Shown: piece after piece, positions 37,177-39,505 of the stretch
Position numbering within the stretch: the stretch's first letter is position 1
Layout of the letters: each line of letters begins with the position of its first letter
Origin: Alphaproteobacteria bacterium
GTDB lineage: Bacteria; Pseudomonadota; Alphaproteobacteria; UBA828
NCBI GenBank assembly: GCA_016869195.1
Contig: VGET01000004.1
Span: 1-42,982 of the forward strand
Direction of reading: 5' to 3'
Length of the DNA: 42,982 nucleotides
Translations under genes and position numbers: made by a program
The notes under the pieces: generated by a model
Database searches by the model: none
The model's input: the letters and a program-made list of their open reading frames with translations, nothing else
Told to the model about the DNA's origin: nothing

Positions 37177-37371
37177 ATGGAGGGCATCATGGACGACGAT
37201 GAGGCACGGCCACCCCTGCCCGACTGGCCGCCGAAATCGATCGATCACCTCTCGCTCGAGGCGCTGCAGGCCTATCGGCGGGCGCTGGACGCCGAGATCG
37301 CCCGGGTCGAGCGCACGATCGAGTCGCGCGGCCGGCACCGCTCAGCCGCCGACGCATTGTTCAAGCGTTAG
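37177..37371 (+). CDS. DUF1192 family protein
   Basis: LSLEAL..YRRALDAEIARV...RSAADALFK; divergent from the quinone oxidoreductase; start 37177 or 37189. Confidence 0.82.
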   Translation: MEGIMDDDEARPPLPDWPPKSIDHLSLEALQAYRRALDAEIARVERTIESRGRHRSAADALFKR

Positions 37372-37397
37372 CAAAAAGGGCGGAAGGGTCGCCGGCA

Positions 37398-37412
37398 TTA
37401 ACGAATTCTTAG
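37398..37412. promoter_or_regulatory. Putative CtrA-binding site
   Basis: TTAA-CGAATTC-TTAG (TTAA-N7-TTAA with one mismatch) upstream of the candidate sRNA. Confidence 0.55.
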
Positions 37413-37444
37413 AGCTTTCGGCCTAGGGTGGGCCTTGCCGATAT

Positions 37445-37538
37445 ATCGATACCCCGATCTATCGTGCATTTTGTCCTCCCTGATTATTCCGTCTCCCTGT
37501 AACCCGCGCCGCCGGTCCTCCGGCGGCGCTTTTGTTTT
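37445..37538 (+). ncRNA. Candidate trans-acting sRNA with anti-SD motifs
   Basis: TCCTCCCTG (37474) and TCTCCCTG (37492) followed by an intrinsic terminator carrying TCCTCC at its loop; 5' end is a guess. Confidence 0.55.
37506..37538 (+). terminator. Rho-independent terminator
   Basis: Perfect 10-bp stem GCGCCGCCGG/CCGGCGGCGC, loop TCCT, tail TTTTGTTTT. Confidence 0.88.
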
Positions 37539-37601
37539 CGGCGCGTGAAATCCGCGCGCGCCTGCGTGTCGCAGGGTGCCGGGGCGAACCGGTTAAACCC
37601 C

Positions 37602-37630
37602 TTGACATACAAGGATTTGTGGCCTTAACT
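37602..37630 (+). promoter_or_regulatory. Putative sigma70 promoter of the lipoprotein gene
   Basis: Consensus TTGACA, 17 nt spacer, TTAACT; AGGGAG RBS before ATG 37666. Confidence 0.5.
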
Positions 37631-37665
37631 CGGGCGGCCAACGAGAGCTATAGGGAGCACGGTCC

Positions 37666-37944
37666 ATGGTCAGAAAATCCTTCGTCGTCCGGTCTCTCAT
37701 CCTGGCGTTGCCACTGGCGATTGCGGCCGGCTGCACGCAGCCGCAGACCGACTCGTCCAAGGTCGACGCAGCGGCCCAGCAATCGGCCGAGTCCAAGCAG
37801 ATGGCGATGGACGCCATGGCCAAGGCCCAGGAGGCGGCTGATGCGGCCAATCGAGCGGCGGCGGCGGCTGAGCAGGCCGCGGCGGACGCCCAGGCGGCGT
37901 CCGACAAGGCCGATCGGATGATGCAGAAGTCGATGCACAAATAG
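37666..37944 (+). CDS. OprI/Lpp-like alanine-zipper outer-membrane lipoprotein
   Basis: 92 aa; lipobox-like IAAG-C23; Ala-rich coiled coil; C-terminus DRMMQKSMHK ending in Lys; good RBS. Confidence 0.85.
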   Translation: MVRKSFVVRSLILALPLAIAAGCTQPQTDSSKVDAAAQQSAESKQMAMDAMAKAQEAADAANRAAAAAEQAAADAQAASDKADRMMQKSMHK

Positions 37945-37968
37945 GTCGTATCAACCGGTTTTGACGGG

Positions 37969-37992
37969 GCGGCCGGTCAGGCAACCGGCCGC
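37969..37992. terminator. Hairpin between convergent lipoprotein and L,D-transpeptidase genes
   Basis: GCGGCCGGT-CAGGCA-ACCGGCCGC 9-bp stem; no clear U tract. Confidence 0.45.
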
Positions 37993-38003
37993 CAGCGGGT
38001 CGT

Positions 38004-38966
38004 TCAGTCGGCTGAAGGCTCGGCGTTCGCGATCGGCACCGGGGTGCCCGAGCGCTGGCTGAGCGTCTGTTTGATCAGGCCCCAATCGACCCACGAAAAG
38101 GCGTCGCCCGCCGTCACGCGGATCAACTCCATCGTGACATCGTCAATCGGGTCGACGGGCGCGAGCCCCAGCGCACCGGTTTCCTCCAGCGCGAAAATCT
38201 GCGCGGGCTCGGGGTGGGCCTCCAGATAGAGCACGCCATCGACCCAGCCGGCCTTGACCTTCTGATCCACGATCGTCACCGGCGTGCCGACTCTGATTTT
38301 GTCGAACAGATGGGCGATGTCCTCGGGATATAGCCGGATGCAGCCATGGCTTACCCGCCGCCCAACACCCCAGGGCCGGTTGGTGCCATGCACCAAATAG
38401 CCCGGAAAGCCGAGATAGATCGCGTATTCGCCGAGCGGGTTGTTGGGTCCGGGCGTAACGACGCGCGGCAAATCGGGCTGCTCCGCGCGCACCGCGGGCC
38501 CTGGATACCAGGTCGGGCGATGTTGTTTGCGCACCACCGACGTTGAGCCGAGCGGCGTATTCCAGCCCTCTCGGCCGGTGCCGATCGGCACGCTGATCGG
38601 CGGCTCGTCGCCGCGCGGAAAGAAGTAGAGCCGCTGGTCACCCAGATTGATGATGAGGCCCTTGTGCGGCGCGTTCGGCAGCAAATGGCCAGTCGGCAGT
38701 ACGACCTTGGTGCCCTCGCCGGGCAGCCAGGGGTCGACGCCCGGATTGGCGGCAATCATTTCGGTGTAGCCGAGGCTATTGTCACGGGCGACGTCGAGCA
38801 GTGTGTCCTCATAGAACGTGGTGTAGGAGCGCATCTCGCCGACAATCGCACTGGTCGTATGATCGGCTTCAAGCGCTGCTGCCGGAGGCGGGGCCGCGCA
38901 CAGGAGGCCAAGCGCCAGGATCACGCCCCCGCACCAACTTCGCCAATGGCTTCCGTATGTCACCAC
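38004..38966 (-). CDS. L,D-transpeptidase, ErfK/YbiS/YcfS/YnhG type
   Basis: Signal peptide, LysM-like DTLLDVAR..AANPGVDPWLP, GPNNPLG, catalytic VHGTN...VSHGCIRLY, C-terminal KAGWVDGVLYLEAH domain. Confidence 0.93.
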   Translation of the reverse strand: MVTYGSHWRSWCGGVILALGLLCAAPPPAAALEADHTTSAIVGEMRSYTTFYEDTLLDVARDNSLGYTEMIAANPGVDPWLPGEGTKVVLPTGHLLPNAPHKGLIINLGDQRLYFFPRGDEPPISVPIGTGREGWNTPLGSTSVVRKQHRPTWYPGPAVRAEQPDLPRVVTPGPNNPLGEYAIYLGFPGYLVHGTNRPWGVGRRVSHGCIRLYPEDIAHLFDKIRVGTPVTIVDQKVKAGWVDGVLYLEAHPEPAQIFALEETGALGLAPVDPIDDVTMELIRVTAGDAFSWVDWGLIKQTLSQRSGTPVPIANAEPSAD

Positions 38967-39094
38967 GCAACACCCTCGGGTTGTCGATCCAAGCCCGGTT
39001 GACCGAAAAGGAAAAACAGTTTGTTAACGCCGGGCCCCGATGATAGGCGAGGGTCTCCGGCCGACCATCGATTGCCCGAGCCAGCGGAGTTCGC

Positions 39095-39505
39095 GTGTCG
39101 AACGAAGATACCAGCACGGCCTATTTCAGCCGGACCTTCGATGAGGCGCTCCGCCTTGTCGTGGAGGCGCGCGACTATGTCGCCGGCCGGCTGGCGTTCG
39201 ACCGCGAGATCGGCGGGCCGGTGCATCAACTCACCTGCGATTGTGAGACTCTGCGCCTCACCACGCGCCTGACCCAGGTGATGGCCTGGCTCTTCATCCA
39301 GCGCGCGCTGCACGAGGGCGAGATCACCGCCGAAGAAGCGCAGTGTGACGCCAATCGGCTGGGCGCGCAGGACGTTTGCCTCGCCGACGACGCTGACATT
39401 GCGGCGCGCCTGCCCAAGCGCCTCGGCAGCCTGAAGAGCCGGAGCCTCGCGCTCTATCAGCGCATCGCGCGCCTGGACGAGATGACGGTGCGCGGCGCGG
39501 CCTGA
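39095..39505 (+). CDS. rcdA: DUF1465 family protein, RcdA (regulator of CtrA degradation) homolog
   Basis: FDEALRLVVEARDY, ETLRLTTRLTQVMAWL..QRA..EGE, SLALYQRIARLD; partial CtrA-like site AAAA-N7-TTAAC at 39013-39028. Confidence 0.85.
   Translation: MSNEDTSTAYFSRTFDEALRLVVEARDYVAGRLAFDREIGGPVHQLTCDCETLRLTTRLTQVMAWLFIQRALHEGEITAEEAQCDANRLGAQDVCLADDADIAARLPKRLGSLKSRSLALYQRIARLDEMTVRGAA

Follow-up and report, generated by a model that had tools for sequence, protein, structure and literature searches.

In Escherichia coli, Lpp (Pfam family PF04728), a small outer-membrane lipoprotein that forms a coiled coil, is tethered to the cell wall through its C-terminal Lys with the L,D-transpeptidases (LDTs) LdtA-C, and a peptidoglycan-attached lipoprotein also exists in Pseudomonas (cited in PMC8263019). 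In the alphaproteobacteria Brucella and Agrobacterium, LDTs are likewise reported to join the outer membrane covalently to meso-diaminopimelate, with beta-barrel proteins as the substrates, joined via N-terminal residues (PMC10787603; PMC11527210; PMC8263019). Agrobacterium tumefaciens in particular is reported to be without Lpp, to tether beta-barrel proteins and to possess just LdtD and LdtF counterparts, with none of LdtA/B/C/E (PMC11527210). According to the paper on the Rhodobacter sphaeroides lipoprotein DalA, no Lpp homologues are known in Alphaproteobacteria (PMC10470522), and a review of the Brucella envelope (PMC10787603) and a paper on DpaA (PMC8263019) say much the same. A tethering survey placed Lpp in four gammaproteobacterial orders and nowhere else; as described there, it searched PF04728 only (bioRxiv 10.1101/2021.05.31.446380) and was therefore blind to the OprI-type family. 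In the 42,982-nucleotide stretch of DNA analysed here (contig VGET01000004.1, positions 1 to 42,982; the window), which comes from a freshwater or lake member of the Alphaproteobacteria, an OprI-type lipoprotein gene lies beside an LDT gene, and the putative substrate is the C-terminal Lys of the lipoprotein. The pair makes up a genuine two-gene module, conserved and of a kind already known, in a class said to lack such lipoproteins. No publication on an OprI-type lipoprotein in Alphaproteobacteria was found in a literature search that left most subscription journals outside its reach, and annotation pipelines already name such genes.

The two genes are convergent, with 59 bp between their stop codons, and have the following features.

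37666..37944, + strand: OprI-type alanine-zipper lipoprotein gene, an open reading frame (ORF) of 92 aa with an ATG start and the C-terminus ...RMMQKSMHK.
Within the lipoprotein: signal peptide 1-22, lipobox IAAG/C, Cys23, helix ~30-90, terminal Lys92.
38004..38966, - strand: LDT gene of the LdtA/B/C/E (ErfK/YbiS/YcfS/YnhG) group, 320 aa, GTG start, Sec-type N-terminus.
Within the LDT: catalytic residues His193 and Cys209 (codon 38340-38342).

The N-terminus of the lipoprotein carries basic residues (K4, R9), followed by a hydrophobic stretch and the lipobox. The lipobox call rests on the match to a PROSITE-style pattern, which is fitted by the window protein and by all 27 lipoprotein loci of the class. 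Cys23 is encoded at 37732-37734 and Lys92 at 37939-37941, and a Thr stands at +2. Pfam family PF11839 (Alanine_zipper) matches with 35.1 bits (E 1.7e-8; cut-off 23.1) and is the sole Pfam family on the protein at E<=0.1; the alignment takes residues 31-92 to profile positions 8-69 of 69, up to the last residue. For the NCBIfam model NF040598 'Lpp/OprI family alanine-zipper lipoprotein' the cut-off is 43 bits, and the protein scores 42.7 (residues 12-92 on positions 7-90 of a 90-position profile). Heptad registers 2 and 5 (spacing 3/4) are nearly all Ala, as in VSAAAAAAS and ASAAAAAMK, and Ala is conserved at positions 50, 54, 57, 61, 64, 68, 71, 75, 78 and 82. An AlphaFold2 model of the monomer, built with 20 relatives, shows a single unbroken helix over residues 30-90, with pLDDT (the predicted local distance difference test value) above 90 from about residue 35. 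At the usual helix rise of ~0.15 nm per residue, this predicted helix would be roughly 9 nm long. A three-copy complex prediction for the mature part (residues 24-92) scored 0.37 against a mark of 0.42, and is not evidence either way. None of the PDB sequences matched the lipoprotein at E<=1, and a protein atlas search returned PF11839 clusters alone. The mature part comprises 70 aa in the window lipoprotein and 59-92 aa over the class. Paired Cys residues are found in the helix of some lipoproteins, both outside the class (L049, L062, L071) and in it (L088), for example ...ACCQQN... and ...ECAAKCEA..., which hints at disulfide-stabilised variants.

The closest described counterpart is Pseudomonas OprI, which belongs to the same family, PF11839, and has the same build of lipobox, alanine-zipper helix and C-terminal ...R-x-x-x-K-x-x-x-K. 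The two differ in host class and in their ends, the window protein finishing in HK and OprI in RK, and the LDTs of the class fall on the other side of the LDT tree. With E. coli Lpp the window protein shares the plan of a small coiled-coil lipoprotein of the outer membrane that ends in Lys; PF04728 does not match it in the Pfam search at E<=0.1, Lpp itself scores 89.5 bits on PF04728 and just 20.6 on PF11839, and hhalign aligned the window lipoprotein family with the LPP profile over residues 14-47 alone, the signal peptide and lipobox region (probability 82%). The gene layout is the same in both: in E. coli K-12 MG1655 (1757421-1758725; L039), lpp(+) and ldtE(-) converge with a gap of 63 bp, compared with 59 bp in the window, and the LDT is of the same group. 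Outside the class, loci that we take to be OprI-like, or of the Pseudomonas kind, on the basis of the OprI sequence, have a convergent LDT neighbour as in the window; the LDT is next door in 24 of 29 such loci and is 38-48% identical to the window LDT. The preliminary description of the locus had stated that lpp and oprI genes neighbour an LDT gene, and its reports of a 92-aa lipoprotein (Cys23, Thr at +2, alanine zipper, ...RMMQKSMHK) and of a convergent ErfK/YcfS-type LDT agree with the ORF, the lipobox pattern and the domain matches.

On the basis of its YkuD domain, its catalytic His and Cys and its full-length similarity, C-terminal part included, the window enzyme is assigned to the LdtA/B/C/E group. 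PF03734 (YkuD) matches with 87.2 bits, and His193 and Cys209, in the motif H-G...S-H-G-C-I-R, are invariant in 55 of 55 aligned LDT relatives. The LdtB model PRK10260 and the LdtA model PRK10190 are matched full-length; on PRK10260, residues 55-311 correspond to profile positions 52-304 of 306. The best NCBIfam models are those of LdtB (175.6 bits), LdtA (173.8) and LdtE (165.3), and all three scores are far under the respective equivalog cut-offs of 583, 517 and 480. Given these sub-equivalog scores, and a position outside the clade of the four E. coli enzymes, the window LDT is not placed as LdtA, LdtB or LdtC specifically. Its AlphaFold2 model has a mean pLDDT of 88.0, and the top fold match of the model is a Klebsiella L,D-transpeptidase, 4lzh (template-modelling score 0.84 by target length; 36% identity). 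The top PDB sequence match, 9tyw (E 1.7e-72), is not among the Foldseek matches listed. A further LDT, annotated as ldtB and 39% identical to the window LDT, occurs on many Klebsiella plasmids; counted by organism name there are 66 such records, and most of the plasmids are predicted to be conjugative.

The distribution of the pair was surveyed in an even sample of 401 alphaproteobacterial genomes from 183 families, with an LDT orthologue cut-off of E<=1e-40; a pair was counted where a small Ala-rich lipoprotein with a terminal Lys is encoded no more than 1.5 kb from an LDT orthologue. PF11839 was matched at E<=0.001 in 37 genomes, many of the weak matches being long Ala-rich proteins, and in 18 of the 37 a short frame matched to the end of the model. 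All 18 fall among the 50 genomes with an LDT orthologue. The LDT lies within 1.5 kb in 25 of the 27 class loci holding the lipoprotein, with 45-60% identity; 19 of these pairs are convergent and six co-directional, with the LDT downstream. Because the pairing recurs at 25 of 27 related loci it is not due to chance, and the two genes are linked well beyond it. An ORF scan beside the remaining LDTs found 16 more small Ala-rich lipoproteins with ...RK ends that had diverged too far to be picked up by the genome scan, two of which score 16-17 bits on Pfam PF11839. The pair is present in 32 of the 50 LDT-bearing genomes, which corresponds to about 8% of those sampled (32/401) and to 22 of 183 families. 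Of the 18 LDT-bearing genomes that lack the pair, two encode the lipoprotein at a distant position and two, both of family f175, have a short lipoprotein that ends in K and is not Ala-rich. A separate search for related loci with the close lipoprotein alignment gave nine loci.

Within the host family, PF11839 was matched in 32 of 44 genomes; this is an undercount, since G010 has a 103-aa copy (22.7 bits on the Pfam model) that the genome scan missed. The LDT orthologue is found in 39 of the 44 genomes and in nine of ten genera, and the genome search gave 0/4 for the sister family of the same order. In a replicon of Azospirillum brasilense (NZ_CP059451.1), an 'alanine-zipper protein' of 87 aa (WP_237907113.1; ...SRSQRKTRS) is encoded 17 bp upstream of the gene for an 'L,D-transpeptidase family protein', which shares 49.6% identity with the window LDT. 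The lipoprotein-LDT pair is patchy yet widespread in Alphaproteobacteria and is not peculiar to the host lineage. The f175 proteins encoded beside the LDT (L097, 4630-4839(-); L107, 4471-4677(-)) are 68-69 aa long, lack a long helix motif and a Pfam match, and end in ...ESRQVK and ...RVFRAQQTK; they may be a minimal form of the LDT partner. A 170-aa lipoprotein ending in K, also not Ala-rich, is encoded in a 1.3-Mb genome (G201; L087, 2492-3004(+)), convergent with an LDT orthologue across a 2-bp gap.

Conservation of the terminal Lys, which had been put forward as a check on the proposal, was found in most homologues. It is kept in seven of eight close homologues, in 24 of 27 class loci and in 15 of the 16 lipoproteins from the ORF scan, and outside the class in all 26 lipoproteins recovered from the 29 OprI-like loci. 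Among the best 150 of 1502 cluster representatives from a family-profile search, 127 end in K, and in 19 more a regular expression found [RK]K with 1-8 further residues behind it. The best conserved part of the whole protein is D-K-A-D-R-x-F-x-x-x-x-R-K, around the terminal Lys. As the preliminary description held, this is an OprI/Lpp-style lipoprotein with a conserved terminal Lys beside an LDT.

Pairing and co-occurrence are kept in two proteobacterial classes, and the two genes form a conserved envelope module. We consider it probable that the product is an outer-membrane lipoprotein with a periplasm-spanning alanine-zipper helix, whose terminal Lys is joined to meso-diaminopimelate by the adjacent LDT. 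In such a mechanism, the 92-aa precursor would be exported and receive its lipid at Cys23; as +2 is not Asp, the sorting rule of E. coli would direct it to the outer membrane. The alanine-zipper helix of ~61 residues would then reach across the periplasm, where the adjacent LDT would couple the side-chain amine of Lys92 to the meso-diaminopimelate of a peptidoglycan stem. The outer membrane would be covalently tethered to the wall as a result, in the manner of Lpp with LdtA-C in E. coli and of the peptidoglycan-attached lipoprotein of Pseudomonas. The outer-membrane location, the oligomeric state, the covalent bond and the role of this LDT as its maker are proposed by analogy with these systems, and an effect of the lipoprotein on periplasmic width is conjectural. 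The LDT type appears to track the lipoprotein and not beta-barrel tethering, since A. tumefaciens, with beta-barrel tethers and no Lpp, is reported to have LdtD and LdtF counterparts only.

The preliminary description had further called the tether self-contained, a term that the rest of the genome does not bear out. Two small YkuD proteins, weakly DpaA/YafK-like, and seven OmpA-domain matches are also encoded. A second LdtA/E-like LDT lies on contig C55 (12-665; L073), where it is cut by the contig start; it scores 80.2 bits on the LdtE model and is 39% identical to the cassette LDT over residues 94-251. In view of this paralogue, the small YkuD proteins and the OmpA-domain matches, the lipoprotein and its LDT would be one tether among several in this genome.

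Several observations weigh against the covalent tether. The lipoprotein falls 0.3 bits short of the NF040598 cut-off, and a two-hexamer sigma-70 scan of 37350-39150 gave no full promoter. No such lipoprotein was found within 3 kb of the LDT in 14 of the 50 LDT-bearing genomes, two of these 14 being at contig ends. In about one in eight relatives, that of Azospirillum (...RKTRS) included, the Lys is followed by a short tail, so that not every member has it strictly at the C-terminus. The gene adjacent to lpp in E. coli is ldtE, so that adjacency alone is no proof of an enzyme-substrate pairing, and the window LDT is as near to LdtE as to LdtA-C (165 vs 174-176 bits on the NCBIfam models). Finally, the R. 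sphaeroides lipoprotein DalA, which is LDT-adjacent, is reported as binding peptidoglycan non-covalently (PMC10470522).

With regard to the tails, Coxiella burnetii offers a described precedent. Its lipoprotein LimB is reported to be LDT-attached via an internal Lys, outside the Lpp-bearing Enterobacterales, in a host that is itself a gammaproteobacterium (PMC8263019). A tail after the Lys, such as ...RKTRS, need therefore not block linkage. Tailed variants comprise L121 (2633-2896), L015, L025, L027 and L093, as well as 19-22 of the 150 representatives, with ends such as RKTRS (Azospirillum), RKTAPPQ, RKGVGS and RKN. Linkage of such variants to peptidoglycan would require either the use of an internal Lys or prior trimming of the tail.

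The identity of the E. coli neighbour bears on an alternative, in which the lipoprotein stays free in the outer membrane as a non-covalent coiled coil, the adjacent LDT makes 3-3 cross-links like LdtE, and the adjacency reflects shared regulation or history. The LDT gene convergent with lpp is that of LdtE, a named 3-3 cross-linking enzyme (PMC11527210), and the window LDT scores nearly as high on the LdtE model (165.3 bits) as on those of LdtA and LdtB. A maximum-likelihood tree of 56 LDTs (quick IQ-TREE run, Shimodaira-Hasegawa-like approximate likelihood ratio (SH-aLRT) support only), rooted on one long-branched paralogue, places E. coli LdtA, LdtB, LdtC and LdtE in a clade of their own (support 100), resolved as ((LdtA,LdtB)98,(LdtC,LdtE)83), with the window LDT outside it. 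Judging from this tree, LdtA, LdtB, LdtC and LdtE form one group of late paralogues. Since they form their own clade, the window LDT is equally related to the anchoring LdtA-C and the cross-linking LdtE, and is co-orthologous to all four, as the free coiled coil would allow; the LDT phylogeny that had been suggested as a check on specificity cannot tell anchoring from cross-linking. The 14 LDT-bearing genomes with no nearby partner also fit a free coiled coil. Such a protein would, however, have no need of a terminal Lys or of the motif D-K-A-D-R-x-F-x-x-x-x-R/H-K, both of which are kept over two classes, nor does it sit easily with an LDT of this type in all 18 lipoprotein-bearing genomes. 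LdtE, moreover, looks like a derived and the most diverged E. coli paralogue, with 23 private substitutions against 2-5 in LdtA, LdtB and LdtC. Two weaker arguments, these private substitutions and parsimony, would make lipoprotein anchoring ancestral in the E. coli group; starting from an anchoring ancestor the tree requires one change, and starting from a cross-linking ancestor two. Taken together, we regard a free coiled coil beside a cross-linking LDT as unlikely. Counts of positions at which LdtA, LdtB and LdtC agree against LdtE (7:3 and 10:3, favouring LdtA-C) were also tried as a specificity test and were dropped, as the private changes of any paralogue behave alike.

Another described system, DalA of R. 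sphaeroides, suggests that the lipoprotein could act as a scaffold or regulator of the LDT, binding peptidoglycan non-covalently and positioning the enzyme, for example at the division site. DalA (RSP_1200) is reported as an outer-membrane lipoprotein of ~18 kDa which co-precipitates with the YkuD LDT RSP_1199 and binds peptidoglycan in vitro (PMC10470522); the neighbouring locus numbers suggest that the two genes are adjacent. Loss of DalA reportedly leads to fewer 3-3 cross-links and to less of a Tri-Lys-Arg muropeptide, from 4.3% in the wild type to 1.1% without dalA, the protein source of which was not identified there (PMC10470522). A lipoprotein ending in ...RK would leave exactly a Tri-Lys-Arg fragment. 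DalA, compared here by description only, resembles the window protein as an alphaproteobacterial outer-membrane lipoprotein that associates with a YkuD LDT, and differs in its reported non-covalent binding and its size, being about twice as long. In the reported test of covalency DalA carried mCherry fused to its C-terminus, where a terminal Lys would be masked (PMC10470522), and a scaffold would leave the conserved terminal Lys of the window family unexplained. We give a scaffolding role for the window lipoprotein little weight, and retain covalent attachment through Lys92 as the preferred reading.

The preliminary description had seen the pair as a gammaproteobacterial-style cassette, acquired or retained in the host lineage. 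Recent horizontal transfer from a gammaproteobacterium, as a lineage-specific addition to a typical alphaproteobacterial envelope, would be in keeping with the patchy distribution in the class (32 of 401 genomes) and with 0/4 in the sister family; the lipoprotein family was, besides, first described in Pseudomonas. In the LDT tree, however, one clade (SH-aLRT 99) holds the 25 outside-class LDTs together with E. coli LdtA/B/C/E, and all 26 class LDTs lie outside it. LDTs of one family cluster together (f1 81, f148 99, f149 98), and the deep class branches are unresolved. The site in the host family is constant, DUF1192-lipoprotein-LDT-rcdA/sseA, in four genera (g1, g4, g8, g10), and is empty in G019, a 99% complete genome of the same genus, and in G002, where the same flanks lie 466 and 357 bp apart. 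The GC (guanine plus cytosine) fraction of the pair, 0.64-0.675, is similar to that of the flanks. As the class LDTs lie outside the clade of gammaproteobacterial and E. coli enzymes, the tree gives no sign of a recent import of the pair from Gammaproteobacteria, which we hold to be very improbable; the site, the GC fraction and the spread over 22 families, Azospirillum included, likewise speak against both a recent acquisition and a lineage-specific pair. The constant site in four genera and the empty sites in G019 and G002 fit presence in the host-family ancestor followed by clean losses. The pair looks old in the host lineage and repeatedly lost; for the class, either an ancient transfer or long vertical inheritance accompanied by many losses is possible.

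Put together, these results permit a broader and more tentative account. In it, the pair would be an ancestral covalent tether that predates the split between Alpha- and Gammaproteobacteria, and at the lpp-ldtE locus, taken to be the same one, Braun's Lpp would be a diverged replacement. The pair would have been lost from many lineages of Alphaproteobacteria, Rhizobiales among them, which would have come to depend on beta-barrel tethers, while in carriers such as Azospirillum and the lake bacterium Lys-linked bonds between lipoprotein and peptidoglycan would still form. The Tri-Lys-Arg muropeptide of R. sphaeroides could also stem from a lipoprotein of this sort. We regard this account as possible, and on balance somewhat doubtful.

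The observation made in the preliminary description is confirmed, and its interpretation is supported in part. The result corrects a widely repeated generalisation, that such lipoproteins are missing from Alphaproteobacteria; the proposed mechanism is borrowed from known systems, and the biology lies a short step beyond the database annotation. The carriers include the cultivable A. brasilense. If the bond is real, it would constitute a third, lipoprotein-based mode of envelope tethering in Alphaproteobacteria, beside Pal/OmpA and beta-barrel tethering. The range of 59-92 residues in the mature part would then allow tether length to be compared with the width of the periplasm, and the question of where Braun's lipoprotein came from would become tractable.

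The flanks of the pair in the window are as had been described, between DUF1192 and rcdA. The upstream gene, at 37177-37371(+), matches DUF1192 with 58.4 bits. The downstream gene, at 39095-39505(+), matches DUF1465/RcdA with 104.5 bits in Pfam; its score on the NCBIfam RcdA model, 76.6 bits, is under the cut-off of 170. Three further elements were noted in and around the pair.

37602..37607, + strand: TTGACA, possible -35 box of the lipoprotein gene, read from the sequence.
37652..37657, + strand: AGGGAG ribosome-binding site, 8 nt before the ATG, read from the sequence.
37968..37993, no strand assigned: perfect 10-bp GC hairpin (GGCGGCCGGT / ACCGGCCGCC, loop CAGGCA) between the convergent stop codons.

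The consensus -35 box that had been described for the lipoprotein gene holds, and the AGGGAG site is likewise present, but no full sigma-70 promoter was reported by the scan; the best -10 candidate at 17-nt spacing from TTGACA is TTAACT (37625-37630). The hairpin between the stop codons has a T-run on neither strand and was not reported by the terminator scan, which requires one.

A conserved non-coding element was also observed at 37391-37544(+), between DUF1192 and the lipoprotein gene. It contains two C/U-rich motifs, GTCCTCCCTG and GTCTCCCTG, and a GC hairpin with a T-run at 37506-37529. Rfam matches to it are sub-threshold, namely BjrC1505 with 29.9 bits (cut-off 50) and mmgR/suhB with 25.7 bits (cut-off 41). 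The sequencing runs listed as holding this DNA are lake-water metagenome DNA, with no RNA run among those listed. The core of the element is nearly invariant in five host-family genomes, both empty-site genomes included. Because it is also kept in these two genomes, the element is considered separate from the lipoprotein-LDT cassette, and it looks like a separate mmgR-like small RNA gene.

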